A DNA stretch of 63,011 nt, filler included, from Dimargaris cristalligena (lineage: Eukaryota), in NCBI GenBank assembly GCA_003614675.1. It is 3 parts of 3 records of this genome, joined end to end, with 100 filler letters (N's around TTAATTAATTAA, not from the genome) between each part and the next. Parts side by side here need not be neighbours in the genome. Positions count along the whole stretch, not along the records: positions 42,096 to 63,011 come from ML002681.1; 2 more parts are not named here. One strand, written 5' to 3'. A program made the position numbers and the translations under genes. Positions 23,683 to 63,011 of this stretch are shown here, piece after piece; position 1 is the first letter of the stretch, and each line of letters begins with the position of its first letter. The notes under the pieces were generated by a model, which saw nothing but the letters and a program-made list of their open reading frames with translations, had not been told where the DNA came from and ran no database searches.

Positions 23683-26600
23683 AGTGGTAGGAGGGGTATG
23701 TAAGTAGATATGTGTGGAGGAGTAGGGTAGTATATGCTAGCACGGCAATGTAGAAAGAAATTGGTCAAGCTATTGCACCGAATAGAAGTACACCTGGGCT
23801 GAAAATAGTAGAGGTACGATGATCACCTTTTTATAAGTTCCTATATTTTGCGGAAAGTGGAAATTGGGGGATTCACGTATATAGTAAGAGCTGCCAACTG
23901 CTGGAAGACACTATCCAACGTGGGAAGATATCGGAGCAGCCGAAAGACACAATAGATGAATATTCTTCCAGGGGAAAAATAAAATAGGAAGATTCGGGGC
24001 AACGCAGCTGGGATATAATGAGGGGGAACAAGCAACTACTCGAAAATAAATGTGTGATATAAAGTGATGGCAGCTGTACATAGTCCGCCGGCACACGAAA
24101 TGTTAATGGTTTCTTCCTAGACAACTATGCCACGTAATAGGGCCAGTAGAGGGATAGTACCGTGGATGAACGCGAGATTAGAAATCGGATACAGACGACC
24201 GGTAGGGTCCAAATTCACGGTTTGAAGAATAAGTAGCACCCGTAATAATAGCCAATGGACTGGGTGGGTGGTAGACGAGTAGGCGGAGCCAGGTGGGCTG
24301 GATTATATATACAGCAGGGCGAAATAGGAGGGGCCAGTGAGATGTAAGGCAAAAATAAAGAAGCCAGTCGAGAGAGCGAGAGGGCACGGTATATATATAT
24401 ATATACAGGTTTATATTTATATTTATATATAGATAAATGAGCCGAGCGCAAGGAGGATATACTCGGAAAGATTATAGCTCAAGCGATACAGAGTACGATG
24501 GCATTGGGAGAAAATCGCAGGGCTTCCGATTGCTGTGGTAGCACAGGGTGTGGAAAAAGGGAGGGAGGGTGGGTGCCGGAGAGAATTATCAAGGGTGGTA
24601 AGAACCAGGGCCTCTTCTACACATAAGGAAGGACGAGAGAGAGAGAAAAGAGGGGGACAGCGAATGTGGTTTTGTTCGCCATTGTGGTCTTTTTCTCTCT
24701 TTTTATGATATTCCCGATCCAAGGAAGAGGAGGGGGAAAGGGAGAGGGGGGGCCAACGGTGCCAGTTCCGCTGGGAGTATTCTACACCACCCTTCACCAT
24801 CTGTGTAGATGGTGTACATATGTGTTCACCACGGCGGTGACAGCCCCGTTCCTCGAGGCCCGACGCCCTCCTGTGTACCGCACGGGCGTTGATGGGTTAC
24901 ACCACTGGGTAGGGGACACGATGAAAGGGACCCTCCTATCACCCCCCCCTCGAACTACACACCAAACGCAAGAAGTGGTCGTGGTGCTCCACCACTAGAA
25001 TAGCTTCTACGCTTACTGGCATCGTAATCCAACCCTTCTCCCCCGACCCATTATTCTTCCTTTCCTTTCGTAACTACTATGGAGGAACTGTGACTTACAT
25101 AATGGGGCCGTTGAGTAAATCATGAAGGTTCCATCTACTGGCTACTTGGCTGCTTCGGAATCCAGCAACTGGTTCATCCACCAGCCATCTTAGTGGAGAG
25201 AACGCTTTCCCTACCCAAAGAGCGATGGCTACCACTTTCTCGGCGTGGCTCTCCTTCCTCCACTCCGGTGGTTTTTTCGGTTACAAAATGGCCAATCCCT
25301 CGCTTTCGTTTGCACCTTGTAACGTGGTGCTGCCCATTCGCCTGGCTCAGTCGATGCCCCCGGTGGATTGATGGGTGATTGGTCAGGCGAATTTCCCTGA
25401 CATCGCACGTAGAGAGCGACTATTCCATTCTAAGCAGCGCAGCTTGGCAGAACCCCATGAGAGGAAAATGTGAGGAGGGGTGTTCAATAGGCGTATTCTT
25501 CAGCGAATACTCGAGTCGATATCAACGGCCAAAAGAGAACCTGGATCATCAAGCACCATGGTACTCTGTATGAACAAAGGGCCCTTCACCAGCGAAGAGA
25601 GGGTAACAAAGATGGCCGCGGAAGATAAACGACGAACTTCACCACCCCAGCAGCCGGTAAAGCTCGTATTTCCGCGTCTCCCATTCCCCCCAAAACCACA
25701 CCACCACCACCACCACGACCATTGCTCGATGTGAACGGAACCCCCCATTTCCACTACAGTTTTTTTACCCACGACCGCACGAATGAATAATCAACGCGGA
25801 CCACCAACCGGAGCCTGTGCCCACGGTAATTCGGCCTTAAGTTCACTTATTCGCCAATCACTACTAAAGGGGATCGAAACTCCTCTAAACAAGGGAATGC
25901 TGTCCTCTAATAGAGCCTCCCCCTCCAGAAGGCAAAGGCTAGAGATGGACCAATAATAAACTTAGTAGGACGATGGCGGCGGGGGGAGGGAAGGAACACC
26001 GCTAACGCAATTGCAGCGGAGGCTCTCCAACTGCGCCCATTGGTGCTCTTTATCGACGGGCATCGTCCATTGAATTTCGACGCTGGAGCGCCACTACTAG
26101 ACCTTGTTGGCTTCGCGAATGGGCGTTGGCTGGAATCTAGCGTGGTTGTGGCGTAGAAGTGGTAATGCTTGGCAAATACCAAAAATCATTGGCTATCGGC
26201 TATTTAGAAATGCCGTGGGGTAAGTTGAGCCATCCAAGGGTTTTATTGGTAGGTTCCAGTTGAGAGATGCTTTGGCCATTGTTTAGGTCGAAAATGGCTA
26301 GTCTGTGGGGGGGGTGACCGTTACCTTATACTGCCCTGGTTTCAATAGGCCGTTTTTCCTAGTATTGCCCACATAAAGTGAGTTTGGTGCCTTTATAGTA
26401 GGAGTATTTGTATTCTATAAAAGATGGCATGAATTTTAAGCCTATACTCGGTAGGTGTGTGTTAATCCGATAAAATGAAACCACGCCTATTATTGATTCA
26501 AATGGGAGTAGTTCAGCGAGGCTGTATAACGAAAGATCCATTTGATGAGGCAAATACTACTGGTTGAAAATAAACATCCCACCGATTTTCCCATGCACAT

Positions 26601-42758: not shown

Positions 42759-44345
42759 CTACCCGAATTCCCCACCGGATCTCTCTGGAAGATGGTAAAA
42801 ATACGTTTCTCGAGAATGTATCCTCACCCCATCATTCACTATACGGTCCATAGAGCGTATATCCCGGAGATTAGGGAGCTGGGCCTTAAGCTTAATGATG
42901 TTAAGCCAGCAATTCTGCATTTTAAAATAGACCGAAGTGATCGTTTCGCTGTAGAAGGTCTGACCAAAAAACTGGATAAGCTCTTTCCCGCTGAAAAACG
43001 TAAGGGCCAGACTTCTTAGACTCTGGGATTGAGTTATAATGAGGGGTAACACAGTCAACATCCGGAAGCAAGTCACCAGTGTCAGATGGCGGAGGTTGTG
43101 CAGATTCTGCGTGATTAAGGAACCCGTCCTAGACGACAAGGGCCAGTTGTAGAGCAGGAGTTTCGCTAGACGAGGCCAACTCTGGCCCACGAAATGGTTT
43201 AGATATTCTTCAACGTGTTGACCATCAAAGGCAGGGTTCGTGAGTCGGCCTAAGGAAATGTTCTTCAAATGGGGGTAATCTGTTGGGTTGATCCTGGTGA
43301 CGGCATGGAGGCTTGGCTCGTTGTTAAAGCACAATAGCGCTAGCACCACCAGATTACCGAACAGCGGTTGGTCCGGAACAATCAAGAGACTAATATTCGA
43401 ACCGAAATATGGGATAGTCAAACTCTGTAAATGAGGAAAGCGGCGGGCTATCTCATGGGCAAAATCATCTGGGGGGTTAGTTATGGATAGGGTCAGGCTG
43501 GTGATGCCCGTAAACGGCCCAATGACATCCCAAAGACCATGCGGACTACCCGGGTATCTATGTAGTATGAGACGCAAGCAGCGAACCTGGCCCAAAAAGG
43601 CCCTAACCGAGTCCGTATACGTCTGTTGTGCGATATTGGGCACCGTATACCCGGGTTGCGTACCAAAACAGCTAATGGCAACCGACCAGGGGACCTGCGG
43701 CAAAAGGGCCATGGTCACCGCCAGGGCCGGCCATTCCATGAGGGAAGTCATGGAAAATCCAATCATGTCCAACCGAGCTCCCCAATGACGGCAAAAGAGG
43801 TTCCACTGGGCCTTGGGCTTGCTGATAGTGGCCTCATCGAACCAATTGACCTTTAACTTCCGGATGGTATTGCTGCCGGTGTATACCAAGTGGTTGTGCC
43901 CCCGTTGCCGCTGGTCAAAAATATTCACGATATTCATATCCAGTCGGAGCACTGGCTCCACCAGTATCCGCAGAGAGCGGCAGGTGGCGGCCAAGCTAAG
44001 CTGGTCGCGGTTAAATAGTTGGTCGATGATGGTGCGACCATACTCGGGCCGACTGGGGTCAAAGAACCAGAGGAGCAGGCGCAGGCCGGGTAAATCGACG
44101 GGGTGGCGAGTCCGTTCTGTTTCGGCGGGAGTGGGATAAGACGCCGGTAAGTTATCTAGGATTGCCATTCGCTCGAATAGGGCCACGTGTTCCGCCTTAA
44201 GAGCCTCGTTGGTCTCCTGTAGCACCTCGTAGTCAGCCTGGAGTAGGTTGATGCGTCGATTGACCTCATCCAAAGTCAGCGGCCGAGGTGACGAAGCACC
44301 CACTCGAGCTCTATTGGGACCGCGGCGAACGGGAGTAAGTGACAT
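42759..44345 (-). CDS. F-box-like / LRR (RNI-like) protein with N-terminal coiled coil
   Basis: 528-aa intronless ORF. IIDQLFNRDQLSLAATCRSLR is F-box-like. Repeated LxxLxL units (FPHLQSLTI, YPHLKNISL, LHNLRHLTL, LPNLRDI). Confidence 0.8.
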   Translation of the reverse strand: MSLTPVRRGPNRARVGASSPRPLTLDEVNRRINLLQADYEVLQETNEALKAEHVALFERMAILDNLPASYPTPAETERTRHPVDLPGLRLLLWFFDPSRPEYGRTIIDQLFNRDQLSLAATCRSLRILVEPVLRLDMNIVNIFDQRQRGHNHLVYTGSNTIRKLKVNWFDEATISKPKAQWNLFCRHWGARLDMIGFSMTSLMEWPALAVTMALLPQVPWSVAISCFGTQPGYTVPNIAQQTYTDSVRAFLGQVRCLRLILHRYPGSPHGLWDVIGPFTGITSLTLSITNPPDDFAHEIARRFPHLQSLTIPYFGSNISLLIVPDQPLFGNLVVLALLCFNNEPSLHAVTRINPTDYPHLKNISLGRLTNPAFDGQHVEEYLNHFVGQSWPRLAKLLLYNWPLSSRTGSLITQNLHNLRHLTLVTCFRMLTVLPLIITQSQSLRSLALTFFSGKELIQFFGQTFYSETITSVYFKMQNCWLNIIKLKAQLPNLRDIRSMDRIVNDGVRIHSRETYFYHLPERSGGEFG

Positions 44346-45249
44346 CGCATAATGTTGTGGCTACGGCGACAGGGCGAGTAAATTGACCGGGCACAGGGTA
44401 AAAACAAAAAGAAGACCAATAGGACTTCCCGGATGAAAGTGGATATGAGATTTCAACCAGGCAAACAATAAAAAAGTATTATTCGAATCAAGAGTGTAAA
44501 AGCCTACAAGGGATATATAATGTTTTTTGGCTGGGTCCCGGCGCCTTTTAAACCAAAGTATGCTGGATTGCTGGCCGTTTGCCGGACCTTAAATTGTTAG
44601 GATAAACATACTGCGAATCTTCCAATAGGATATATGAATGGATGCAGCTGGGAACAACAGAAAAAATCATGGCGGGAACGGCCATTTGACTTTATTGGTG
44701 AGGTATACATGGCAACCGGCTAGGGGAGACCCTCCCTGATTACAACTGGAAGACTTATTTACATCTACCTTGGGCCATTAAACGGGTAGGGATTGGCAAA
44801 GGGAGTGTGAAAGGGGGGGAGGGTAGCTTTGAAGAAGGCCCGTATTCCGGCCCATGAAATAGTAAATCATTTTCAAAGGCATCCTTCCCATTAATCACAG
44901 AAGAGACGCTGGTCACATTTTCACCAATATATTATCCTAGCGCATTACATTGAATGTTGCTACCCTCGTTTACAGGTAAGCAATATACGTGCGTGTTAGC
45001 AAGGCGCGAATTAAGCATTAAATCCTTGCCTCTCGTCCCAGCGCCATAGGCACTCATGTGAACCTTCTAATTTAGTACCTCAACTTTATTCACACATTCG
45101 CTTGTCCAGTCTACAATTCAATAATTTCCACGGCATATTTAGGTAGATACTACCAACCCTCTAGTTAAAACTAAAACATTTTAATGTACCGCTGAGAACT
45201 TCCCAGCGAAAGTGGCTGCTAATAGTTCACCGGCATCGGATCCGTGACT

Positions 45250-46668
45250 TTACACACTGGGAAGGAAAATGTGTGGATATTTTTTTTGGAATTCTTGCCG
45301 GTCCCAAATGAACTGAAACGATGTTTGCAGTATCTTGAGATTGGGGAAATGCCCGACCAGGGATTTGGCTTCTTCCAAGTTAATTCTCCCCTGCAGTCGC
45401 AAATCGACGACGGAGAGGTTAACAAATGAATTCATCAGAAAACGGGAACATGCCTGCGGACAGCTGAAGCTGAGGTTGAGCTTCGAAAGTCGACAGCACG
45501 ATCTAATCATCGAAGGAATCCCCCTGACCGTAAAGTCGCACTCGTGGATGGCCAAGTGCTGCAGATTCGGCATGCATACTGGAATATTCTGGACCAGTTC
45601 ATTCAGAATGGGGCATCCCCGTAAGGTGAGCGACGTAATAGTGTTCCAGGGTTGACCTAGGAGCCTCGCCAACGCATTGGCGCCCACCGTGTCCCTGGAT
45701 GAGGATATGGATTTTTGCTCCATGTCTAATTTGAGATGCGTCAATTGGGGGAAAAAGCAAGGCTTCAGAGCGCGGAAAGTGGGCCTGATGGCATGGTCAT
45801 TCAAAAACTCCAGGCTTAGAGTTTTCAGTGCCTCGAAGCGACGCTCTACAAAAGCCTGGGTGGTATTTTTATCCCACTCTATGATACAGAGTCTCAGACG
45901 AATTAGTTTCGGCAGATATTTCAATAACTCCGTGAGAAAGTGGTCATCCATTATGACCTCCAAGAGCCCCAGTTTCCTGAGGGTCTCAAGTGGAGTGAGC
46001 ATGTTTATATACTCTTTAAATCGAGGGTCACAACCGTAGCTATATAGTACAAAAGTATGCACTCCTCTTAATAGGCCCCAAGCCGCGGGGGTTTTTGAAC
46101 AGTGGGGTATATCTCCGAAGGCTATCCCATTGCCGAGGAAAATATCCGTCAGGCAAACCGAAATCTTCTGGGGAGGGTAGCGGAGTCTGGCGGCTAAGTC
46201 GATGATCCTGGACCAATCAGCTAAATCGTCTATGCTGAACTTCAGTGAATTCAGTTCACCTGTCCACTCTTTGCAGAACTGTTCGAACTGGTCGAGCCGT
46301 GTGGCATCGGAGTGTTGTTCGGTAATATCTACATACACCGACCGAATGGCGTCACTACCAGTGGATTTGATCGAAGGTATGGGCGGAATCGTCTCACTAA
46401 ATATCTCGCAGAGGTGTACATCGAGTCGGTAGGCCTTTATAACATGCGGTCGGAGCGACTTGTTAGTGGCCGCCAGGCGGAGTTGATCTCGGCAGGACAA
46501 GTACTCCATGACTTGCCGACCGTATTGGGCATGATCTTCAGCGAATAACCAAGTAAGAAGGGCCATTCCCGGTGAATTACTGGAGGGAGGGCTGGCCTGG
46601 TTGTAAGTGTTAGAAGCCTGCATCCGGGTTCCTTGGGTAGCCCGCGTGCGGTTTAATTTTTGAAACAT
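45250..46668 (-). CDS. F-box-like / LRR (RNI-like) protein, tandem paralogue of 42759-44345
   Basis: First ATG at 46668 (MFQKLNR). VMEYLSCRDQLRLAATNKSLR, then LPKLIRLRL, FPQLTHLKL, MPNLQHLAI, FPNLKIL. Confidence 0.8.
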   Translation of the reverse strand: MFQKLNRTRATQGTRMQASNTYNQASPPSSNSPGMALLTWLFAEDHAQYGRQVMEYLSCRDQLRLAATNKSLRPHVIKAYRLDVHLCEIFSETIPPIPSIKSTGSDAIRSVYVDITEQHSDATRLDQFEQFCKEWTGELNSLKFSIDDLADWSRIIDLAARLRYPPQKISVCLTDIFLGNGIAFGDIPHCSKTPAAWGLLRGVHTFVLYSYGCDPRFKEYINMLTPLETLRKLGLLEVIMDDHFLTELLKYLPKLIRLRLCIIEWDKNTTQAFVERRFEALKTLSLEFLNDHAIRPTFRALKPCFFPQLTHLKLDMEQKSISSSRDTVGANALARLLGQPWNTITSLTLRGCPILNELVQNIPVCMPNLQHLAIHECDFTVRGIPSMIRSCCRLSKLNLSFSCPQACSRFLMNSFVNLSVVDLRLQGRINLEEAKSLVGHFPNLKILQTSFQFIWDRQEFQKKYPHIFLPSV

Positions 46669-48838
46669 TTTGAAGGGAGGTGCGTTGATAGAGCGGTAAA
46701 ATCGAGTAAGCCGGCCGACAGGTAACCTTAAACTGATGACAATAATAAAAGAGCTGAGTGCAAACAAGTAAGTGGTTTTGACAATAGGGCAGACGCTTTG
46801 CAGAACAAATCTTTGAAGATATGAAGTAGAGGATATGAAGTAAAATGTCCCGTTTATAAGCAAATCGGTTTTTGGTCTGGACGAAGTTGGGGTGTACCAA
46901 ATACTATGACACGGTTTCCGGAAAAACATACCTCTCTCCTGTCCCATTCACCTTTCAAGTTGAATTGGTTTCTATCAATTCGCATAAAATTTGCACTTGG
47001 GAATTCATTCTTATTTTGAATGCTCATTTTATAATTAGATAGGTAACAAAGCACAGAGTCTATGAATAAAAACTATCGGAGTTTCCTAATTGCCTTTCAA
47101 TGTCTACATTACATTCAGTCTAATAAGTAGGTTGGAAGGCATGGTCAATTTATGAAGTTAAGGTAATAATCGTTTATAGCCTCGAGCCTATCTCCTAATA
47201 TATTGAATATTGGAAGGCCCATACGCTGATTATGGATATAAACCATGCCATCGTTTACCGAACAGCCGCATTAAAGCCACGCGTTTACTTCTGTCCTTTG
47301 AATCTGTCCGCCACCTAACCCCTACAACTACCGATAACTTAATACATAATGGCGCATCTCAAACTTATCGGAGTGTTCCCCTTCAGCGGATGCATGTTTT
47401 ATATTTGTGAGCACTATCGATACCTCCCAGTCGGGTCAGTTGGTTTTTGGGAAAATCACTTTATGTTAAATGCGGCGTAAGCAGACAAACCCCTTCGCTA
47501 ACTCCAAATGTATCGTCGAGTTTATCTTTAACATCCACAAGATTGATTTGTCTAATCCCAGTAAACGCTGTATAGACCCGAGGTTCGGGACAGTGCTAGT
47601 AAAGGAAGATAAGGTCGACTCATCAATAGGATTGAGACAGGGATAGGAGATACATATGCCAAGTCAACTAGTTCACTTTAAGCTAGGTAATGCATTAAAG
47701 CTATGCCTATATTTTGTAATCAGTCTAGGACTACAAATGGGAGGGAAAGTGTGCCCCTCATTCAACGCCTAACTCACGCAATACTAGATTTGGGGCAATC
47801 GCCAAATATGCTATAGTTCAATGGACCTTCACCTGGCCAAGCCTCGTGGCTCGATGGGCTATTTTTCGCCGATACTGCATTATCTTCGGCATTTATCTCC
47901 TCTAAAAGGGGTGGTGATATGGGTCGTGGCTAACTGTATTGAAGCTAGTAGCCACCAGACTACATTCTTTCTCAAGTACGTCGGACATATAATATTGGAG
48001 CTATATAATTTAATACCAGATTCGCCTATATCTTTTTTTAGGAGGAGGTGCCAAGGCAACGAATGCCCGCCTAAATAAATAGTTAGGAGATTAGCTACCG
48101 AGTTTGGTTGCAATGCCAGTTTCAAAATAATGACAGTATAACATGGTGCTTTGTGAATAAGGGATTGGCCCATAGGCCCTTAAATTCTTACCCGCTTACG
48201 GGAAGCGACAGATTCAATTTGTACATGTAGGTATTTATATAAAATCTCGGAGTAAGTAGCAATGCTAATGAAGCCTTGCACTTATTACCTTTTAATTTAT
48301 CCACAAAGCACAAGTTGGGGAAAGGGGCCAAAATTCAATTCAACATGGCCTTTTATATATATATATATAATTCATTGAACTTTTCCTACAGCTCGGATTT
48401 ATGTCAATATATACCTTAGGCAATGGGGCAGTATCTACTGGTCATGAAAGCTGTCTACACATGGACATATTATCACTAGGATGTATCGTTCGGGGCTAGA
48501 TAGGGGGGGTAGTACGGAATAATAAAAGCCTACCTCGAAATGTATAACCATACGTATTTATAGATTGGTAGTGGTAAGGATGAAAGATGGTAGAGTGGTA
48601 TATACTGGCTCAAACAATAACTGCAGTTTGATGGTTGGATTAGGCAAAATATCAGGCAGGAAGTAATACCACTACGAGATGGACGGAAATGACGCAAAAT
48701 ATTTAAATGGATGGGCGGGGCTTGGAATATTCCATAGAAGACGGATTAAAAGAATCGGTTGAAAATAATATTATAATCGACGGGGGTATTGACAGGGGCA
48801 CGGAATGGCGGCAGCCACTTGGCATTCGAGTAGGTTGA

Positions 48839-52381: not shown

Positions 52382-54330
52382 TCAGTACCGCTTAGTAATA
52401 CATAGGTGTAGATTTTCTGGTCGGTTGAGGTCAAAGGGTGGGGACGTGACAGGGTCACACCCGTTCTTATCGAGCTGCAGGGTCCACGTGTACTTGCGTA
52501 AAATCATGCTGGTGACTACCCGCTGCTCCATCAGGGAAAAGTTCTTGGCAATACACTGGCGGGGGCCACTCCCAAAGGGGATGAAAGGGGCCAAACCGCC
52601 GTCTTTGGGCTCAGCCATATTAACGTCGAGGAACCGCTCTGGCCTAAATTGCTCGGGCAGCTCGTAGTGGTTGGGGTGGTGCTGAAGGGCCAGCACATGG
52701 GTCCCGATCCGATTGCCTTTGGGAATAAGGTGACCGCAGATGATTTGATCGGTCATGTTTTCGCGCGCCACAATCGCGGGCAGCGGGGGGTTGTACCGGA
52801 GGTTTTCGCGAATGGACGCATCCAGATAGACCATGGCCTTGAGTTGGCCGTCATTGGGAATGAGGTCCGTCGGTGCGTCGCCCATCACCGCTAACACTTC
52901 CCGGCGGACTGTGGTTTGCACGCGGGGGTTTTGCGCCAGCATGTACATCCAGAACCCCAGCGCACCCGCCGTGGTTTCCTGGCCGGCTAGATAAAATACT
53001 ACCACGTTATCGCGCAGCTCCTTGTTGGTGATCCGGGGCGCCGTCGGGTCTTGGCACGCCTCAATCATCAAGGTTAAAATATCAGCATTGGCGCGGTCTT
53101 TCAAGGGGGTCTCGGCCAGCTCTTGGCGTTTCTGATCAATCACCGCAAAGAGCATATCATCCAGTTCATCAATTTGGGCCGACAACTGATCCCGGCGGAA
53201 CCCGGGTAGACCATCGAGAAAGGGGAACAAGATGTAGACGGGGTTGCATAGTTTACGCACAATCGTGGCCAGAAGCACGGCGTATTTGGATTCGGGGTTC
53301 TCCAGCGAGTTAAAGTCGAATCCGTACGCCGTACGGCCCAGCACATCCATGGTTAGACGACCTAGGTAAATGTCAAATGGGACCACCCCCATCCGGGCGG
53401 AACCTCCCCTCCTTTGGAACTCCTCTTTTTCAATCACATCGAACATCCGGATGGTGGTCTCGCCGATGGCCCGGGTGGGCCACGCGTGGTTAAACGCCGG
53501 GCTAACTATCCGGCGTATCCGGCGCCAGACATCACTGCCCGAGAAGGAAAGACTGGTACCAATGAATTTGCGGAATAGCGACTCCGGGTATTCGGGGTTG
53601 GGCATGGCCTTCTCTATGGTGTCTAAACAATGCAAATGGGTTGGTTTCAAGGGGCATCCGTGGTAAGTTCAATGTCGAAATATAATTAACAGTCAGTGGT
53701 TCAAGGTATGATGATGGACTAAAATAAAAAAAAACTGTCACCGATTATAATATCGGAGGTTGCTACAGTCTCTTTCATTAACCAGCAGTTTGATTTGACC
53801 CGAAAGTCGAATAATTACTAACTAAATAATGGTCGGTCATACTTACGGTTGGTCCGGCTGAATATTTCTTTGGCGTAATTTAAATTGGTGGTCATTAATT
53901 TCCATCGCCCACCGTTCCAGATCTACTTAGTGGCAGGGCCAATTCGGAAGGAAGTGGGTAAGTGGCCATTGGCAATTAGAGTACAAGTTCCATATTGGGA
54001 AAAACGGCATTCCTATAATACTTGGTCTTCAATTAGTAATAAAGACCTAAATGGCAGTTAAATACCATACACCTGGTGTAGCCCAATATTGGGGCTTTAT
54101 ACGACACTTACTACATAGGACTCATTTTGGACGAAAAAATCTCGCATTTCCTGGTATTGCTTTTGCGGGGACGTTCGGTAGTAGGCCCACCGGATAATTT
54201 TGGTGATCGGTATGGCAGGGAAGGGCCGAAAGTGACTAGGTATTCGAACTATACGGTATACGATATAGCCTAGGGAGAGAATTATGGTTATGATAACCTC
54301 GAGCCATATGGGAAAATACAGTCCCTGCAT
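52382..54330 (-). CDS. Cytochrome P450
   Basis: Exons 54330-54112, 53922-53847, 53622-52382 join in frame. N-terminal membrane anchor, WRRIRR (WxxxR), AGQETT, ENLR (ExxR), PERF, heme motif PFGSGPRQCIA. Confidence 0.96.
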
Positions 54331-57300
54331 GATGCAATAGGTGGCAACTAATTATAATTATGTCTGGTCGGGAAAGTAATGCCAACGAAACGAATCGAAG
54401 GAAAGGGGTACGTGTGAGGGTTATGCAGGTGAAGTACTGTCGGTCTGTAATAACAGAGACGCACACCAGTCGTTAAACGAACGAGCAAAACGGTTTTTAA
54501 TAGGAATAGTAAAAATGGCTGAGAAAAATGGTGCAAGCAGGGCTGGCCACCGGGCCGTATTTATCCTCGGCTGAGGGAAATAGAAGAACTGTGTAATCTA
54601 TGCACCCATAATAAAAGTCGGCGTCTATGGGCGACTTCCCTACCACAGCTGCAGCTACGCACATTGTCAGTAGGGCTACCTACTGTGAAGTAGGGGCTAT
54701 GCGTATGGTCTGTTTGTTTCACTAGGTTTTGGGTGGCACTGAGTAAATAGGTAAGCTCAGCAAAGTCAGCACCGCCCGCTCCCCATATGTGTAAATAGTA
54801 ATAGATAAATTCTAGAGAGCTTATATGTTCCTGCGAGAGACCAAGGGGATTGGGGAGGCCAAGGTTAGTACGGTAAATATAAAGAAATAAATTAAATTAC
54901 GTATGAGGGCGGCAATGGGGACGAGAAAGGGGGCTTAAGCCAAGTTGCTTGATGATGTACGGTAAGAGAGAGAGAGCCCCTTTCAGCGAATTTGGGTGCA
55001 GTACCTGTCAATCAAGCCCCTTCAACTCTTCCACTGGCTATGGACCATGTCGACGCCAGGGACCCGCGTTTCACCCCTAACCTAAAAATACATCACTATT
55101 GTTCCTCAAATACAAGTAGCATATTCAACAAAATAAAATTTACATCCCCTACATCCACTCCACACCACTCCACTTCTATTTTTATCGAGTCGCGCCATGT
55201 GGGGTTGGAAATTAAGTATAATTTATCTGTTTCAGACTTTAATATACGCAAGTGAAGATCTCCAGAAAGAGAGTCATCGATGACCACCATCTAAAAGTAA
55301 TCGAAATAGTGATAACATTTAGTTAAGGCGAGTATCTGTGAATATCCTTGGAGGGGGGCATTGGCTACGCTTTGATCGGCATACACCACCGGGCACTAAC
55401 CAGACTCAAATGTGGACAAATAAATCGGAGTCACATATATCTTCAGCACCCAAGTTGCCGAGATTTCCCACAGCCTGATGACTTGGTACATATATTAATG
55501 GTTTGTGTGTGCATTTTAGTGCGTAAGGCGGGGGTAGTGATGGTTGGTAGATGAGGATTCCGTAGTGATATCACAGATTTTACCTGATTTTTAGAAAGGC
55601 GGGGAGCGAGAGAAGGGTGGTCGAAACCATGGTATGGGTGGAATTTCGAGAATCTAACCACCAATTTCATTGTGTGGGCTTTGAAATCGTAGCGCCATTA
55701 CCAGCATTAATATTTTTGGCTGTATTCAGAAAGTAGGTCATTTAGTACCGGCGGGATAGATTTGCCCAGAATGGATGGCGAATAAATCGTGTTTTATAGA
55801 TGTGAAGTTCGTGACAGTTGGTTGGACCGGTGGCTTGTTTTTATGGGGGCCACGCTCAATATAGGCAGCGGTAGCCTACGTGGCCTAATGAAGCACCACG
55901 GGTTGCTGCTAACATTCGGCTACCCATTATCCACATCTGAAATACCATCTTGTATTCTTAACGGAGAGCACGGGTCAATATGAAATCAACACTCGGGGAC
56001 GGTTTCTTGGATTAATTGGAGTAATAGCAGAAAGTTATTTACAGGGTAAAAAAAGACTTACACTGGTAACTAAATGCCCTATGTTATCATTACGTAAGCG
56101 GCTATCTAGGCTATTGCCCGTAATAATGGTATATTTTTGATCCTAAGTCAATGCAGAATACTGGCATCATCCTGTGTAAATTGATACTCCACCAAGCGAC
56201 TCTGCCTTCTTCCAGGGCCAGATTCCACCAGGTATTCCAACCAAGTGGGATACGTGAGTAATACACATCAGTCAAGAGACACACGGCCCCGACCATAGAT
56301 TCCAGAGTTTCTGGCGAATTACTGTCTCGTCAGGTGTGTCCCCAAATCCTGTAGACCTATTTTAACTGGACGACCTTTAGTACAGAGCATTTTTTCCCAA
56401 GCGCCGGATTCTAACCCTACTTTAATCGGAAGTAAATTCCTCCGAATTTAACCAGGATGAACTAACCTACACAACTAAAATGATGTTACACCTAACAACA
56501 ACCCATTCCATACAAGCCAAACCCGTCCATGGAAAGAGTGTAGTCTGATAAAACTCTCAAACCAAGAGAAAATTAATCATGTACATCCAATGTGTTATAG
56601 ATAGTAGACATAACCACTACCAGATCCCAGGTAGTTAGATAATTGGTAATAGAATGCCCAGTTTGGTGATGGCAGGGACTGGAGGTCTAACGAATTTTCC
56701 TAAAATAAAAAGTCCAGTCGGTCGGTCTGTTACTTAACGAGTATAGACAAGTGTGTTAATTAGTAGTAGCGATAGAGTTTGAATGTGGACTAATATATAA
56801 AGATAATACTAAGCGGATAGGTTTGCAGTCATCTAAGGAGCCATATCAGGGCAAGGAAACCGTTCTCTTTTATGCTGGAGTACTAATTATAATCCCTGTT
56901 AATTGAAAAAGCGGTCTCAGGCTGTCCCTCTATAGAGGTCTTGGGCCCAACAGATGCCAGGGGAGGAGTAGGTGCTTGTGGTGGCCTGGTCATGAGTCCA
57001 TTGATAGGGGTGACCGGGCTGGTACATGGCGGCCCCGATGGCGCAGTAGCAACAGGTCCTAACTAAAAATCGATGAGCAGAGTCCTATTGATGAAGGATT
57101 AGGAAACAACAAAAATAACTACAACACGTTTGCACTGCCAGTTTGCATATAAATGTTCGACTTCATTTGTCTTGCATTCAAAAGTCCGACCTATTTCCGA
57201 GTATTTCCATATTCTGCTTAAATTTTATTGGATCATTTTTGTCATGTCGTTATTACTATCCAGCGACTTCCAAGGCCCTCCTAAAGGTTACATAAGTAAC

Positions 57301-57785
57301 TGGCGGAATTGCCCCTTCTTGGGAGGTTGTCATCGCCTACTCGTTTTGATTGCTAATATCATGTATACCCTATCGTGCCTCATTTTCACTTATCATTTTT
57401 CCTTGCCATTCGCCGACGCCATTATTTTCTATAAATCATTTTACCCCTCGATTACATCCTTGTCTTTCTTTTGTTTAATCGCTTTCTTGTTCCCGTTTAC
57501 TGGCGTCATGACTACGTCCAGCGCTGCCCCCGTCTCGTCCAACCCGGCGTTTTTAGGCCGTACCCATAGGGAGGCCAATCCTTCCTATCGGATTCCGAAG
57601 GCCGTCAACACGAGACCGGGACCCAATAGCATAAAAGTTCAAATAAAGATAAAAGCAACACCTGGATGCTGGACGCAAACCCTATATATCTTATTTATTT
57701 TAATAGGACGATATATTGTGATATAATATAAATTCTTATAGATGACAAGAGTATGATACAAAAAAATTCGGCCAATACTGTCGAT

Positions 57786-59096
57786 TTAAGGCTTCTCCTT
57801 GGAGTGTAATTTAGTAATATGTCTTTCCAAATTTGAGGCGGTTGTGAATGATCTATTGCATTGTTCACAAGCAGATGGCCTCTCCCCGGTGTGTGATCTT
57901 AAATGAATGACTAGACTACTAGGGCGCAAAAATGATTTCGTACACACATTGCAGTGGTATTTTTTTATCTCGCCGGGGTGAGATTCTCTGGAATGAGTAC
58001 GGACACCTGATTTCTTTGGTACCACGAAATCACATTGACCATATTTATAAAGCACTCCCCTACCATGTGTTGTCACAACCTCATTCGGAGGGCTATGACC
58101 CTGCGGTAAACCCCCTTCAGCCGCTGCAGGCTGAGTCGTCTTTTCGGAGTGGGATTTCAAATGGTCCAAGAGTTCATTACAGGTGCTGAATGGTATTTGG
58201 CACTGGTCGCAAGTGTAAAACGGTATCTCGGCATCCTTAAATCCAATTGGCATGTTGTTGATGCCACGCCGCCCAAATTGCGGCTCACATAATCCACCAG
58301 GGTAAGGCCTAACCCCGGTGTGTACTCCCATATGGTCATCCAGCGTACTGGGGTTCGGAAATAAGCACCCACAAATGTTGCACACATGTGACTTGGCACG
58401 GGCGATTGAGAGGAAGTATTCATCCAGTTTCGTTTGGGACACATATGAGCGCTCATGATTTTCATAGGGGAAAGTTCTCTCCACATTTTGTAATTTCGCT
58501 TGATCGTCACTGGGAGCTAGCCCGAAGGGGCTAGGCAGGGTACGAAGGCGGGTCTCAGGGCCATCTTCCAATGTTTTCTTCGTGGGCTGATTAGGTGGGC
58601 TGCCGTCTGATGCCCCTAGGCTTAAGGCGGTGGGATCCCAAGCCATGTCAACCAGATTGTTGAGGAAGCATGGGTCAAGGTCGACATTGACCCGATAATC
58701 ATTGCCGTCCGGTGCGTTATACACGCTACCCGCGGTATTGGGAAGTGAAGCAAAGTACCCGGAAACACCGCCGGGATTCTGGGCGCGATAGGGGCTGCTT
58801 AGTTCCTGGAAACTTGGGGCACTGCTGCCATCCACTGACGGTTCGAATGGATAATTGAATAGTTGCAAATCACTGGCGTCTGGCTGGCTTACATAGTTAT
58901 AGTTATCGTCAAGTAGGGAGTCGATGGGGTGCGGTCCTAGGGCCGTATTTGAGGTGGGTTCATCGAAATTATAAAGGTAACTAGGGGTATAGAAAATTGC
59001 ATTCTCTGGATTGACCTCAGATGGGTTTGGTTCGGTAGCCCTCGCTACAGTGAGTAGCCCCAACCACAACAGCCCAGTTGTTTTGTGGGCTCGCAT
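57786..59096 (-). CDS. C2H2 zinc-finger protein with N-terminal signal peptide
   Basis: 436-aa intronless ORF with AAA-ATG context. MRAHKTTGLLWLGLLTVARA|TE. Four intact fingers including YHCNVCTKSFLRPSSLVIHLRSH-TGERP-SACEQCNRSFTTASNLERHITKLH. Confidence 0.9.
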   Translation of the reverse strand: MRAHKTTGLLWLGLLTVARATEPNPSEVNPENAIFYTPSYLYNFDEPTSNTALGPHPIDSLLDDNYNYVSQPDASDLQLFNYPFEPSVDGSSAPSFQELSSPYRAQNPGGVSGYFASLPNTAGSVYNAPDGNDYRVNVDLDPCFLNNLVDMAWDPTALSLGASDGSPPNQPTKKTLEDGPETRLRTLPSPFGLAPSDDQAKLQNVERTFPYENHERSYVSQTKLDEYFLSIARAKSHVCNICGCLFPNPSTLDDHMGVHTGVRPYPGGLCEPQFGRRGINNMPIGFKDAEIPFYTCDQCQIPFSTCNELLDHLKSHSEKTTQPAAAEGGLPQGHSPPNEVVTTHGRGVLYKYGQCDFVVPKKSGVRTHSRESHPGEIKKYHCNVCTKSFLRPSSLVIHLRSHTGERPSACEQCNRSFTTASNLERHITKLHSKEKP

Positions 59097-60735
59097 TTTA
59101 TAGGTTGCCGGTTCGATAAAGCTCGCTGAAAATCAGATACAAAGGAGTATCCGTAAATGGAGTAAAAAAATACAACTGTGGATAGTATCAATTAGTGACG
59201 ATACAATAACATATCAGTCTACCGCCTGGTTTGAAAATAAAAATCAATATATGAAGAGATGACTGACCGCGAAATAAATTATCGAGGACGCGGTTTAGGA
59301 AGTATATATATATTCAGCTAACAATAGGGCTACCTTTGCTGATATCTATACATAAATATACAGCTAACCTTAAACCGCGTCCCTGGCTGACTACCTTGGT
59401 GAGAATGGGATATTTCCAAGTATCATGGTCTGCACCGTTAACCATATGTCCATGGGGTATCGATTGTAATACAGTGTTGTACAGGCTTAAAGACTCTGGC
59501 TTTTTAATGGACCAGCGGATCCCCTGTTGTCGTCGTGGGCCATTAAAAGCTCAAATAGGGCTACATTATTATGCACAGTCGTAACACGAGAGAATATTCC
59601 TTAAGTCGGAGTGACAATGCTATTGTTACCAACGTCGAGCCTACTATTGGGGTTTGGGCCCTCTCATGGTCAGATTATGGCTGTTAACTTTTCGTTACGA
59701 TCACTGCTTAAAAGATGACTTGTTCAAAATACCCAATGAAGATATCAGGCTAAACTCCCTATTGTTACAGGTCACTAGGCCAATGATGTGGCTAGTGTAA
59801 CAACCGGCCCGATGGGAGGATTGTCACCCACCCGCTGTTTTCAAAGTCAACAACTCAGGCTACTTCGTCATACTGGAGTGACCCTGTCTCTAGTTAATCA
59901 CACTAATATACGGATATTGCCCCATTCCCCTAATAGTAGTCATAATAGTGCGTAATTAGGCTATGGTGGTTGCTCCTCATTTCCTGTGTAAAAGTCGATA
60001 TTTTAGGGAATACGGTTAGGAACCTTGCCTCCAGTGGTGCCTGGTAGTGGCACGGGAGTCAATCCAACAAATTGCAGACTATAATAGGATTAATTTAGTA
60101 ACATGGATAACAGATAGTCTGTTGGTATAATGGTAAATATTTAAATAATATTCATTCTATACCTGCAAGACCTTTCTCATCCAATGTATTGTTATATCTA
60201 TAAACAGAGAGGACTTTTCCTATATGTCTTGGCCTTTGTTGTAGGCCAACAGACTAGTACCGGCTGGAACGCCTACACCTAGGATGAGTAACAGGAAGCT
60301 ACATACGAGACACTGATGTTTTGTAGACCATAAAAATATAGACGGCCTTAGATATCAATCGAGGGAGTTAACTAGAAAAGAGAGGGCATAAAATAATTGC
60401 TAATTTACCGTTAGATACATCAACTATATAAATGAAGAGATAGTAATGGCTAAAGAAAAGTGGTTATTTGGTTATTGAATTTCTGCACTCATTTGATTAA
60501 ACTGAATAATGGTGGGGGCTAGTCTCACAAGATAAGTCAGCTTGGATACTATTGATTATTAAGTGGGACAGTCTATATCAGTTCACTAGGTTTGTGGAAA
60601 TTAATTAATCTGCAATATATTACCAGATAACTGGTACAGTATCCCGAATTTTGCTGAGGGATTCAGTGAAGCCTTTGAGCCCTTTGGCTTAGTTTATATT
60701 ACACATAACTGTAATATATTTTCTGGGTATGGAGT

Positions 60736-61317
60736 TGTCATCCGGGTTAACCATTCTTAGTCCATTAAGAGTTCCAAGGATAGGCTTCTAATGGTGGACA
60801 GGCTTAGACTTGGCTAAGTGGGTCCTAGAATTAGGTGGGGGCCTGGTACTAACTAATAAAGGCTATTAAAGTAGGTTCAGGTAAGAGATGTGCAGGAAGC
60901 ATACTTACTAGTTAATATGAGGGGAGTAAGTGTATATAGAGCTTATTAGGATAAACTGAGGGTATAAGAATAAGCTAAGGAATTGAACTGATCCTCATGG
61001 GGCCCAGTTATATATATATAGGGGATAATACCAGAGGGAAGTCCCTGATGGGGGATACTACTAAGACTAAGATATGATAAATAAGCTAGCTAGATGGCTG
61101 TGAGGACTTAGAAGACTCTATTGGGAACTGGAAGGGTTGATAGATCAGCACAGGGGTATTTAGTGTAAACTAAGGAGTCCAGAAGGGAAATGGTTATATG
61201 AAATAGGGTGATCCCATAGTACCCAAAGTGACCATAGAAAGGTTAATATGGTACTATAAGGCCTAATGGGGATGGACAGTATTGTATCTAGATTAAGTCA
61301 GATTAAAAGGGCTGATA
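60736..61317 (+). repeat. LTR family 1, copy C (uninterrupted, 582 bp)
   Basis: TGTCA...TGATA, colinear with copy B over its whole length. No matching target-site duplication seen. Confidence 0.85.
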
Positions 61318-61318
61318 A

Positions 61319-62061
61319 ATAGTATACTCATTTTTATACCAGGATATTATCCCTCATTATGGTATTCCCCATAAATTAATTGCTGACCATAGTGAACTAT
61401 AGGGAAAAATTGTCAATATTGAGGCTAAAGAAGATGGTATTCAACTTAAGTTTATCACTGCCCACCACCCCCAAACTAATGGGATAATTAAGTGTGGCTA
61501 TTGCAACCTAGTTGCCTACCTGGGGAACCTATGTTGCCATAATGTAGAGAACTAGCAACAATATCTGAATACAGTACTATGGGTAGACCATACAACAATC
61601 AAATTAACCACAAAGTTTAGCCCCTATTGTTTGGTATATGGCTAGGATTGCCTAATACTATTCAATTTAAATGAACACACCCGGTTTCCACTCCCTTGGT
61701 ACTCCACTATGCCCACTGCCAAACTCCTGGGGCTATGTGCTATTCAACTACTTCAAAATTTGTGGATATGTGAGGCTGTAAGCATACACATAGATGATAA
61801 CCACACAAAAACAAGTTATATTTTTAAAAGTATCACTATATCTACCAGATTCTATTTGCAACAGATGACCTGGTTCTAAAGAGAGACAGCTGACTGATAA
61901 AGTTTAGAGGAAAGCTCCATGATCATTAGCTTGGGCCTTATACCATCTGTGGAATTTACCCAGGTAGTGTCTATACAATCCATGAATTTGATAGAAGCAA
62001 GAGCCAGAATCAAATTACTGGGCTCCACCTGAGACCCTATTTTGGTCCTATTTCTAGTTGA
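61319..62061 (+). pseudogene. Degenerate Ty3/Gypsy integrase (core + GPY/F region)
   Basis: FLYQDIIPHYGIPHKLIADHSE...ITAHHPQTNGIIKCG...VLWVDHTT...FSPYCLVYG*, then after a frameshift GKLHDH*LGPYTI...LRPYF. Several stops. Confidence 0.9.
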
Positions 62062-62086
62062 ACTACTGGGCAGTTCAAGTTAGTCT

Positions 62087-62440
62087 GGGGGGAAGAATGT
62101 GGTGCTATCTGGAGGTCAGCACTTATCCCCAGACTGTGGACAGCTAGTCCTCATCATCAGAGGATGGAATATACTGCAATATACAATAGTGGTATCATTC
62201 CCATCATTTTCCCATAAAAATTACCACCTATACTGTGGTATATACTAAAAATAACAAAAATATTACTTATTTCTTTACACTTATGGTTTGTATTAAAAAG
62301 TCTGCTGTTCTTCCTTGCATTAAAAGTTTGACCTATTTCTTAGTGGATTCATTGTCATTCCATCTTATTCCATTCTTTACTTATTTTCCACATCCCTTTC
62401 TTTGTATCCAGTGGCCCCTAAGGCCCACAGAATGGTTACA
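62087..62440 (+). mobile_element. Polypurine tract and probable 3' LTR (second family) of the Gypsy remnant
   Basis: GGGGGGAAGAA (62087-62097) immediately before TGTGG (62098). Candidate ends CCACA (62429) or TTACA (62440). Confidence 0.65.
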
Positions 62441-62797
62441 TAAGTAACCAGTAAATTCCCACTCATTTTTGGGGGGACAATCACTACATGTTTTATTTTG
62501 GACTCTTTTGTCTATTCCTTGAACTTGACTATGACTTTTTATTGATTATATATTATTAATACTATTATTTTTATTATTTCTCAATAAACTTTTGCACCCC
62601 TTATTTATCCCCCATCCTCTATCTGATTTTTTTGACTATCTATCCCTCCAAAATCCCACTATGATAATACCCAACTCTGCCCCTGTCTTCTACAAGCAGG
62701 GAGCTGGCTACCACAACTTTAGGCCATACTAATAAGGAGGCTGCTGCCTCCTTGTATATTCTAAAGGCCATTGGCAACAGGCTGTACCTCCCAGGTA

Positions 62798-62883
62798 GTA
62801 TATATATATAACTGGGCCCCATTGGGACTAGTTTAATTCTTTAGCTTATTCTTACCCCCTAGTGTATCTTAATAATCCCTATA
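62798..62883 (-). repeat. LTR family 1, copy D (internal fragment)
   Basis: gtatatatatataactgggccccattgggactagtttaattctttagcttattcttaccccctag matches 376-460 in the same orientation. Confidence 0.8.
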
Positions 62884-63011
62884 TGTAAAGAGCTGAACTC
62901 AAATCCTTGAAAACTGAACTTTATTCGAAAAGATAGGTGGTAAAAAGGGAAAGGTGATGATAGACTTGCTGTTCCAAGAGGTGGCAGCAAGTGGGAGTAT
63001 TTATACTTAAA
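62884..63011 (-). mobile_element. Possible further LTR truncating copy D
   Basis: Homology to family 1 stops at TGTAAAG (62884). The minus strand carries TATAAATA, then AATAAA, then ...TTTACA. Confidence 0.4.

Follow-up and report, generated by a model that had tools for sequence, protein, structure and literature searches.

A Candidate Secreted C2H2 Zinc-Finger Protein in the Haustorial Mycoparasite Dimargaris cristalligena

Introduction

The closest described counterparts of the protein reported here are MoHTR1, MoHTR2, and MoHTR3 of Magnaporthe oryzae, secreted C2H2 proteins shown experimentally to enter rice nuclei (PMC7672089, PMC10189765). MoHTR1 and MoHTR2 are reported from within rice nuclei (PMC7672089), MoHTR3 reaches the biotrophic interfacial complex only with its signal peptide (PMC10189765), and three of ten predicted secreted C2H2 proteins of this species were pursued as effectors (PMC10189765, PMC7672089). 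In these accounts and in PMC11555045, the MoHTRs combine an N-terminal signal peptide with a C-terminal C2H2 domain, are lineage-restricted, and belong to a fungus with a biotrophic interface. They are described as small; a single C2H2 domain with basic residues on both sides is analyzed in each, a nuclear localization signal (NLS) is mapped, action on host promoters is proposed or shown, and suppression of target genes in the plant is discussed.

The TAL effectors of Xanthomonas embody the idea proposed here for the present protein: a parasite makes a factor that recognizes specific DNA sequences, carries an acidic activation domain, and works inside the host nucleus. They are unrelated to it in sequence, come from bacteria, reach the host by type III secretion, and bind through TAL repeats rather than zinc fingers. 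The introduction of PMC7672089 mentions them, and a preliminary description of the locus studied here put forward the protein as a eukaryotic analogue of TAL effectors. As a new concept this does not stand, because MoHTR1–3 are already proven secreted C2H2 nuclear effectors, and the idea is known from them.

The Dimargaritales parasitize other fungi by means of appressoria and haustoria, and Dimargaris cristalligena is described as a haustorial mycoparasite (PMC9866270), in agreement with the earlier supposition of a haustorial or otherwise biotrophic fungus. Effectors of haustorial fungus-on-fungus parasites are almost unknown; a literature search on mycoparasites and nuclear effectors returned no paper with either term in its title or abstract. 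We analyzed a D. cristalligena gene that encodes an array of C2H2 fingers behind a putative signal peptide, in a window (the whole stretch of DNA considered, filler included) of 63,011 nt.

Results

Reading Frame and Start Codon

57786..59096, minus strand: complete, uninterrupted ATG-to-stop coding frame of 436 aa plus stop, from translation
59133..59135, minus strand: stop codon in frame with the ATG and 36 nt upstream of it
58348..58372, minus strand: 25-nt GT..AG stretch, the "intron" of the public model, from model comparison

An open frame of 436 codons with four fingers significant in Pfam far exceeds what chance would produce. Met1 is encoded by the first ATG in this frame, with an A at position −3, and no other Met follows in frame before residue 151. 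The public protein for the gene (P0002) has the same start and is identical to our frame over aa 1–241, but it is only 304 aa long and has no Pfam domain. Removal of the 25-nt stretch shifts the frame of the public model, which consequently ends at 58157 without any finger. The gene was previously called intronless; the frame is indeed uninterrupted, whereas the public model splices out these 25 nt. Because the shifted model hides the fingers, censuses of the secretome or of transcription factors that use it would miss them. The window holds no paralogue: a tblastn search with the protein matched only itself, the next E-value being 0.39. An AlphaFold2 single-sequence model was unusable (mean pLDDT 36.4, pTM 0.22).

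Where translation begins bears directly on the main competitor of secretion, namely that this is an ordinary intracellular Dimargaris transcription factor, a lineage-specific offshoot of FlbC-like two-finger regulators with extra fingers. We regard this as a real possibility, short of an even chance and only a little less probable than a secreted effector. Its N-terminus would then go unused, either ignored by the signal recognition particle, bypassed by a true start elsewhere (in an upstream exon or at a later Met), or a chance look-alike. Two features near the ATG favor it and count against an effector. Directly after the upstream stop lies the string ttttcag, a possible splice acceptor (G at 59126) that may leave room for a spliced upstream exon, and the string TATAAAA adjoins the ATG; were the latter a TATA box, the mRNA would begin within the signal-peptide codons. 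Against this, no upstream coding exon or notable frame was seen across the 1.9 kb upstream of the ATG. A start at Met151 was rejected: all 150 codons before it are open, with a chance of (61/64)^150, or less than one in a thousand by simple arithmetic, and an out-of-frame ATG within about 100 nt of Met1 would hinder initiation there. That the public model shares the Met1 start also speaks against the intracellular reading.

The N-Terminal Half

59037..59096, minus strand: signal-peptide-like segment, aa 1–20 (rule-based)
58602..59036, minus strand: acidic/aromatic S/P/N/D-rich region, aa 21–165 (by composition; presumed activation domain)
58392..58601, minus strand: charge-neutral linker region, aa 166–235 (by composition)

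The protein begins with a basic n-region, MRAHKTT (R2 and K5, plus H4), followed by the core GLLWLGLLTVA and the residues R-A before TEP. Residues 6–18, a run of 13, are uncharged, the first acidic residue is E22, and mean Kyte-Doolittle hydropathy across residues 8–18 is 2.05. The presumed cleavage site after residue 20 (A-R-A before T), read directly from the sequence, has Ala at both −3 and −1, with proline absent from −3 through +1; the rule script itself returned only the earliest site allowed, which follows residue 16 (L-L-T before V-A-R). Judged by rule, the N-terminus conforms to every requirement of a eukaryotic signal peptide: charge of the n-region, a core shorter than a membrane span, and small residues at −3 and −1. 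The anatomy claimed in the preliminary description (basic n-region, hydrophobic core, A-R-A) is thus borne out by rule. The segment is not amphipathic, because its hydrophobic moment is low (0.05–0.37). We rejected a mitochondrial presequence on account of this low moment and the unbroken hydrophobic run, and a signal anchor or membrane tether because the core has only 11–13 residues and the charge distribution would be expected to place the fingers in the lumen.

The same rule applied to 119 zinc-finger relatives, taken from the best 120 matches, found a signal-peptide-like start in none of them, in line with the earlier statement that TGE(K/R)P-linked C2H2 pairs normally lack signal peptides, and the best 8-residue hydropathy window at the N-terminus (2.17) is the highest among 122 proteins. 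This difference from the relatives is evidence against an ordinary intracellular regulator. Signal-peptide look-alikes are nevertheless known among nuclear proteins, and this, together with the pursuit of three of the ten secreted C2H2 candidates in M. oryzae, counts in favor of such a regulator.

Behind the putative signal peptide, the expected acidic and aromatic tract is present at aa 21–165, with 20 D+E, 2 K+R, and 18 F/W/Y and a pI of 4.05, and it is presumed to be an activation domain. Relatives of the N-terminal half were not found: among 939 word candidates, aa 1–235 gave one match, the same gene, and among 1.84 billion representative proteins it matched only itself and P0122 (E 1.2e-5). 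The latter, a bacterial-looking protein with tandem repeats and a C-terminal hydrophobic tail, was rejected as spurious, its score being summed over three repeat copies at 30–37% identity. A language-model search with aa 1–235 placed it nearest to clusters of C2H2 proteins, not secreted families (score 0.94, 141 of 256 shared features), a lead only, as the score is uncalibrated for parts of proteins; as such it sides with an ordinary regulator and against an effector.

The orphan N-terminus is also what would be expected if the gene were young or in decay and largely or wholly without function. On that view a duplicated zinc-finger gene has been left near repeats and is still open only by recency, and its N-terminal sequence, signal-peptide look-alike included, derives from DNA that was not conserved. 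The failure of the public pipeline to recover the finger frame fits this reading too. We consider it improbable: 436 stop-free codons and four intact fingers argue for current or very recent selection.

No classical NLS (K-K/R-x-K/R or a standard bipartite motif) occurs in the 436 aa, which carry only isolated dibasic pairs, at four places (aa 173, 276, 361, and 378). Import into the nucleus through zinc fingers themselves is possible. The single N-x-S/T sequon, N414, falls inside the last finger. Its rarity is not significant (one observed against 3.84 expected; 8% of 20000 shuffles reach the same depletion). Both the missing NLS and the position of the sequon weigh against an effector.

The Zinc-Finger Array

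58320..58382, minus strand: C2H2 finger 1, canonical, aa 239–259, followed by a TGVRPY linker (Pfam and regular expression)
58236..58304, minus strand: relic of a decayed finger, aa 265–287, with the first Cys and both His lost (direct reading of the translation)
58149..58211, minus strand: C2H2 finger 2, canonical, aa 296–316 (Pfam and regular expression)
57978..58049, minus strand: decayed finger, aa 350–373 (direct reading of the translation)
57891..57953, minus strand: finger 3, canonical, aa 382–402, helix RPSSLVIH, followed by TGERP (Pfam, regular expression, and alignment)
57804..57869, minus strand: last C2H2 finger, aa 410–431, helix TASNLERH, H-x4-H (Pfam, regular expression, and alignment)

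Pfam zf-C2H2 (PF00096) matches four stretches of the protein with E 2.6e-17 and 62.6 bits, above the cut-off of 25.2, and a regular expression for the ligand spacing C-x2-4-C-x12-H-x3-5-H likewise gave four canonical matches. All four keep every zinc ligand and the hydrophobic core residues. The array ends, as first described, in two perfect fingers joined by TGERP; two decayed fingers can now be added, the relic at aa 265–287 and a finger at aa 350–373 in which Tyr352 replaces the first Cys but the other three ligands, Cys and two His, remain. A PDB search gave 143 sequences at E ≤ 1e-5 (best E 3.4e-47), and ZFP568, PRDM9, CTCF, and Zif268 are among the best 60 of the 143. On these matches the fingers are assigned to the classical DNA-binding C2H2 class, as an ordinary regulator would also require.

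The loss of zinc ligands from two of the six fingers favors a decaying gene, but decayed fingers are common within working multi-finger proteins. The 13 Cys of the array and the many His of the protein, together with a signal peptide whose rule-based evidence applies equally here, raise a further alternative, a secreted protein acting outside the host nucleus, for example extracellularly or in the cell wall, with Cys/His clusters that bind zinc or another ligand. Secreted fungal zinc scavengers do exist. We nevertheless judge this role very improbable, since the full DNA-binding consensus is retained and since, to our knowledge, the TGERP linker and FlbC-like recognition helices have no role beyond DNA or RNA binding.

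Comparison with FlbC-like Regulators and Animal Finger Proteins

We aligned the last two fingers with nine fungal regulators drawn from the 119 zinc-finger matches. FlbC-like members, among them P0047 (its source calls it "C2H2 finger domain-containing protein FlbC") and a Fusarium protein named "related to krueppel protein," likewise end in a two-finger module whose first finger reads F.RPSSL..H..SHTGE.P and whose second reads F..SN..RH, and here as there the region N-terminal to the module is not conserved. The residues F.RPSSL..H..SH of the first module finger are invariant in all ten aligned sequences, and RPSSL and SN..RH are common to our protein and all nine regulators. Together with the fungal-activator build, this likeness supports an ordinary regulator. 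The differences are that in the FlbC-like members the linker is TGEKPF and the second finger has C-x4-C, SN(L/M)RRH, and H-x3-H, whereas our protein has TGERPS, C-x2-C, SNLERH, and H-x4-H; it also carries four further finger units upstream of the module, and none of the nine regulators has a signal-peptide-like start.

Identity of the last two fingers to the FlbC-like members is 40–48% over the aligned module and 52–58% over the best local stretch; to animal multi-finger pairs it is 42–53%. A search with these two fingers alone returned 13 candidates and ten matches at E ≤ 0.001, of which the source-named ones are all animal; it is uninformative about fungal kin. The earlier statement that the helices RPSSL..H and SNLERH resemble fungal regulators is correct for the FlbC type, as the alignment shows, but the resemblance is barely stronger, if stronger at all, than that to generic animal finger pairs. 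Animal C2H2 proteins with known DNA complexes (ZFP568, 5v3m; PRDM9, 5v3g; CTCF; Zif268) also have tandem fingers with TGE.P-type linkers but, unlike our protein, are intracellular nuclear proteins that lack signal peptides; the similarity to them is generic to the finger fold. No sign of host-derived fingers was found, identity to Mucorales (40–42%) being no closer than that to Glomeromycotina or Ascomycota (44–48%).

Genomic Setting

59100..63011, strand not applicable: AT-rich upstream flank without long ORFs (composition, ORF scan, and repeat comparison)
54300..57785, strand not applicable: AT-rich stretch downstream of the gene, between it and a cytochrome P450 gene, GC 0.43

The gene is flanked on both sides by AT-rich DNA. 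The upstream flank has a GC content of 0.375–0.425 and contains no stop-to-stop ORF of at least 100 aa past 59584, and repeat copies at 60736–61317 and 62801–62884 match 349–1917 at 76–86% identity. It had been called a transposon field, and its AT-richness, lack of long ORFs, and dispersed repeats agree with that; however, none of the seven flank ORFs scanned matches a transposon protein family at E ≤ 1. Inverted arms are short and diverged, without recognizable terminal repeats, and there is no clear RIP signature in the flank (TpA/ApT 1.09 and (CpA+TpG)/(ApC+GpT) 1.11, by the usual thresholds). Downstream, 54300..57785 holds no ORF recognized by Pfam.

GC3 was measured for ten ORFs in the window and is lowest in this gene, at 0.53 and 0.45 for its two halves, against 0.55–0.79 in the others. 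Low GC3 and AT-rich, repeat-bearing surroundings favor a decaying gene. Effector genes of filamentous pathogens, too, often lie in AT-rich, gene-poor, repeat-adjacent DNA, and relaxed constraint would account for the two decayed fingers and low GC3 no less than rapid effector evolution would.

Discussion

The best explanation of the sequence is a species-restricted C2H2 protein of activator-like build with a putative cleavable N-terminal signal peptide. We tentatively propose that it is a secreted host-nucleus effector of the kind proven for MoHTR1–3, a candidate only, whose probability we place somewhat short of an even chance. Residues 1–20 would direct the nascent chain into the endoplasmic reticulum (ER) and be cut off after A-R-A, and the 416-aa mature protein would be released at the haustorial interface, enter the cytoplasm of the host fungus, and pass into its nucleus. 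There the two C-terminal FlbC-like fingers would bind promoter DNA, possibly helped by the two canonical fingers upstream, and the acidic/aromatic region would recruit the host transcription machinery. The intact frame, the signal-peptide rules and their failure to pick out any of the 119 relatives, the classical fingers, the haustorial habit, the orphan N-terminus, and the AT-rich setting all point to this candidate.

The same build, an acidic/aromatic N-terminus with C-terminal RPSSL/SNL.RH fingers, is that of an ordinary FlbC-like regulator, and such regulators vastly outnumber secreted ones. An array with 13 Cys would, moreover, need a reduced state or refolding after passage through the oxidizing ER, and the proven MoHTRs were each analyzed through one C2H2 domain, as published.

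Compared by description rather than by sequence, the MoHTRs and the present protein have the same order of parts, the signal peptide here being rule-based, and both are lineage-restricted products of a fungus with a biotrophic interface; none of the source-named entries among the best 120 matches is a Magnaporthe protein. Our protein differs in its length of 436 aa, its four intact and two decayed fingers, its 145-aa acidic/aromatic tract, and its lack of a classical NLS. Its action on host promoters is only proposed, and its host would be another fungus instead of a plant. A more specific version of the effector proposal is that the mycoparasite equips its host's nuclei with a full activator-type factor, complete with signal peptide and acidic/aromatic activation domain; there, fingers that copy the host's FlbC-type helices would occupy that regulator's sites and switch genes on; this we consider unlikely, though less so than either a decaying gene or a secreted non-nuclear protein. 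If true, fungus-on-fungus parasitism would gain its first transcription-factor effector, and fungi their first such effector built as an activator.

Should the protein be secreted and reach host nuclei, the MoHTR principle would extend from plant to fungal hosts and gain an activator-type, multi-finger form, and the fingers would offer direct access to the set of host genes whose switching a mycoparasite requires.

Reading Frame and Public Gene Model

The zinc-finger gene (57786–59096, minus strand) is a single open frame of 436 codons without interruption. Its first in-frame ATG encodes Met1, has A at −3, and is preceded by an in-frame stop 36 nt upstream; after it the frame has no Met until residue 151, and no candidate frame for an upstream coding exon was found in the 1.9 kb 5′ of the gene. 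The start codon is well supported, a point in favor of a secreted effector. TATAAAA directly adjoins the ATG (59097–59103, minus strand), and an acceptor-like ttttcag, a possible splice acceptor, lies right after the upstream stop (59126–59135, minus strand); either could bear on the true start of the mRNA and protein.

The best database match is the public protein of this gene, a hypothetical protein of Dimargaris cristalligena (BJ085DRAFT_31147; P0002, 304 aa), which shares the start codon and is identical over residues 1–241. The public model is the same frame minus 25 nt (58372 to 58348, GT..AG, minus strand), a removal that shifts the frame into a 63-residue tail without a finger, ending at 58157; the P0002 entry carries no Pfam domain. 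The usual introns of fungi are far longer than 25 nt. Because such an intron is far too small and the unspliced frame yields four significant fingers, we take the uninterrupted frame as correct and the public model, judged from sequence, as wrong past residue 241. P0002 leaves the zinc-finger frame at this predicted intron, and the DNA-binding domain is thereby concealed in the deposited annotation.

Features of the zinc-finger protein (minus-strand gene), its public model, and further transcription-factor genes of the window
aa 1–20: signal-peptide-like segment, MRAHKTT-GLLWLGLLTVA-RA; 2–3 positive charges, 13 uncharged residues
aa 21–165: acidic/aromatic tract; pI 4.05; acidic residues 20, basic 2, aromatic 18
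aa 166–235: charge-neutral region
aa 236–436: finger region; pI 8.6; 12 Cys
aa 239–259, 296–316, 382–402, 410–431: four canonical C2H2 fingers, C-x2-C-x12-H-x3-5-H
aa 265–287: decayed finger after a TGVRPY linker; first Cys and both His gone (read from translation)
aa 350–373: decayed finger; Tyr in place of first Cys (read from translation)
58348–58372 and 58157–58486, minus strand: public model with frame shift; 58348–58372 is its 25-nt predicted intron
6965–8587 and 21733–23736, minus strand: GATA-finger and homeodomain transcription-factor genes

Protein Architecture and Putative Signal Peptide

The zf-C2H2 Pfam family matches in four stretches (E 2.6e-17, 62.6 bits, cut-off 25.2), and the last two fingers are joined by TGERP. 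Against the PDB, the finger region matches 143 sequences at E ≤ 1e-5, including the DNA-bound C2H2 arrays of ZFP568 (E 3.4e-47), PRDM9, CTCF, and Zif268. The observations of the preliminary description are confirmed: the open frame, the signal-peptide-like start, the acidic/aromatic tract, the C2H2 array, and the TGERP pair.

Signal peptides were assessed by the classical rules, which ask for positive charge in the n-region; a strongly hydrophobic core, uncharged over 10 residues or more and beginning within the first 12; a −3/−1 site; and a total length of 15–30. The zinc-finger protein passes (mean Kyte-Doolittle hydropathy of aa 8–18, 2.05; Ala at −3 and −1 preceding T-E-P, for a presumed site after residue 20). 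None of 119 other zinc-finger proteins does (drawn from the best 120 of 181 matches), and its N-terminal 8-residue hydropathy is the highest among the 122 proteins compared. A mitochondrial presequence is opposed by the low hydrophobic moment (0.05–0.37), and the core is probably too short for a membrane anchor.

A rule-perfect N-terminus, unique among the relatives compared, favors a secreted protein acting in the host nucleus, the likeliest reading in our view but at less than even odds. Several features count against it: the protein is built like an ordinary activator, its thirteen Cys would have to come through the ER intact, a classical NLS is absent, and its single glycosylation sequon falls within the last finger. 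That the protein is instead an ordinary intracellular regulator, perhaps with a mis-set 5′ end, is a substantial possibility, though well short of an even chance. A secreted protein with another role would share the N-terminus, but alongside a finger region matching DNA-bound arrays we consider this very improbable. A small share of the probability is assigned to none of the readings.

Relatives of the Protein

In a word-indexed search with aa 1–235, none of the 939 candidates except P0002 matched, although the cut-off was as loose as E ≤ 10. HMMER, run exhaustively against 1.84 billion representatives, added to P0002 one repeat protein (E 1.2e-5), rejected as spurious. On these searches the segment is classed as an orphan, which again favors the secreted effector; no paralogue was found within the window.

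The whole protein gave 181 matches at E ≤ 0.001 among 3181 candidates. Among the best 120, animal multi-finger proteins come first (25%–33% identity), followed by fungal two-finger regulators, one with the source name FlbC, that align to the last 55–60 residues only (48%–58% identity). When the last two fingers were aligned with nine such regulators, F.RPSSL..H..SHTGE.P and F..SN..RH proved invariant in both, whereas the zinc-finger protein differs from these FlbC-like proteins in its linker (TGERPS versus TGEKPF), second-finger spacing (C-x2-C versus C-x4-C), ERH in place of RRH, and H-x4-H. Generic animal finger pairs reach 42%–53% identity over the same stretch, so the protein is only a possible member of the FlbC-like group, and in the nine-regulator alignment Mucorales (host-group) sequences are no nearer than other fungi.

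Genomic Surroundings

At about 50% GC, the gene stands out from AT-rich DNA on either side (GC 0.43 at 54300–57785; 0.39 at 59100–63011), and its 5′ flank has no stop-to-stop ORF of at least 100 aa beyond 59584. A dispersed repeat at both window ends (349–1917 versus 60736–61317 and 62801–62884) shows 76%–86% identity and differs between copies mainly by transitions (72 versus 30 transversions); the regions concerned are AT-rich (GC 0.38–0.40). The "transposon field" proposed earlier does hold repeated copies, but none of seven flank ORFs matches a transposon family, and "decayed dispersed repeats" is therefore the fitter term. A 50-aa open frame at 61403–61555 (plus strand) contains HHPQTNG, which we take to be reminiscent of the end of a retroelement integrase core; it has no Pfam match at E ≤ 1, and the likeness is a lead only.

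Such a setting is typical for effector genes. Of ten ORFs of the window whose GC3 was measured, the zinc-finger gene ranks lowest, with 0.53 for its N-terminal half and 0.45 for its finger half against 0.55–0.79 for the rest. This low GC3 and the two decayed fingers fit relaxed constraint equally well; a young gene, decaying or silent, is nevertheless unlikely in our judgment, four canonical fingers standing in one uninterrupted frame.

Elsewhere the window encodes a GATA factor, Glu/Gln-tRNA synthetase, a methyltransferase, a Cpn60/TCP1-domain protein, a homeodomain protein, V-ATPase subunit c, a CSN8/PSMD8-family protein, a C2-domain protein, and a cytochrome P450. The 5′ part of the P450 gene is split (53500–54300, minus strand), with two exon-like frame ends and then GTAAGT, by eye. 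Two long stop-to-stop frames at 42759–44360 and 45250–46947 (minus strand; 533 and 565 aa) lack a Pfam match at E ≤ 1e-5 and, with 0.60 and 0.55, have the lowest GC3 measured, the zinc-finger gene excepted. Four 44-N runs form two pairs with 12 bases between (20965–21008/21021–21064 and 41996–42039/42052–42095) and are taken to be masked or withheld sequence; the Cpn60/TCP1-domain ORF ends at one of the pairs.

Host Biology and Secreted C2H2 Effectors

A haustorial biotroph had been guessed from the sequence alone, correctly: Dimargaritales parasitize Mucoromycota and some Ascomycota via appressorium and haustorium (sections of PMC9866270), a way of life that fits a secreted effector. Precedent is proven in Magnaporthe oryzae. 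Available sections of Kim et al. (PMC7672089) report 20 proteins of the MoHTR kind, half of them C2H2, among 1895 predicted secreted proteins, with MoHTR1 and MoHTR2 located in rice nuclei and their binding elements defined; in those of Lee et al. 2023 (PMC10189765), MoHTR3 reaches the biotrophic interfacial complex only with its signal peptide and is found in host nuclei. Zinc-finger domains also occur among secreted candidates of rust haustorial secretomes (PMC3694141, in part). A secreted C2H2 protein reprogramming host genes is therefore an established kind. The interpretation in the preliminary description finds partial support, in the anatomy and the haustorial lifestyle. Of three papers retrieved on mycoparasitism with nuclear effectors, none names either subject in its title or abstract.

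The zinc-finger protein is a candidate variant of the MoHTR-type effectors, from which it would differ in its fungal host, larger size, several fingers, long acidic/aromatic tract resembling an activation domain, and FlbC-like recognition helices. If secretion and action in the host nucleus prove true, it would give a way into how haustorial mycoparasites use effectors.
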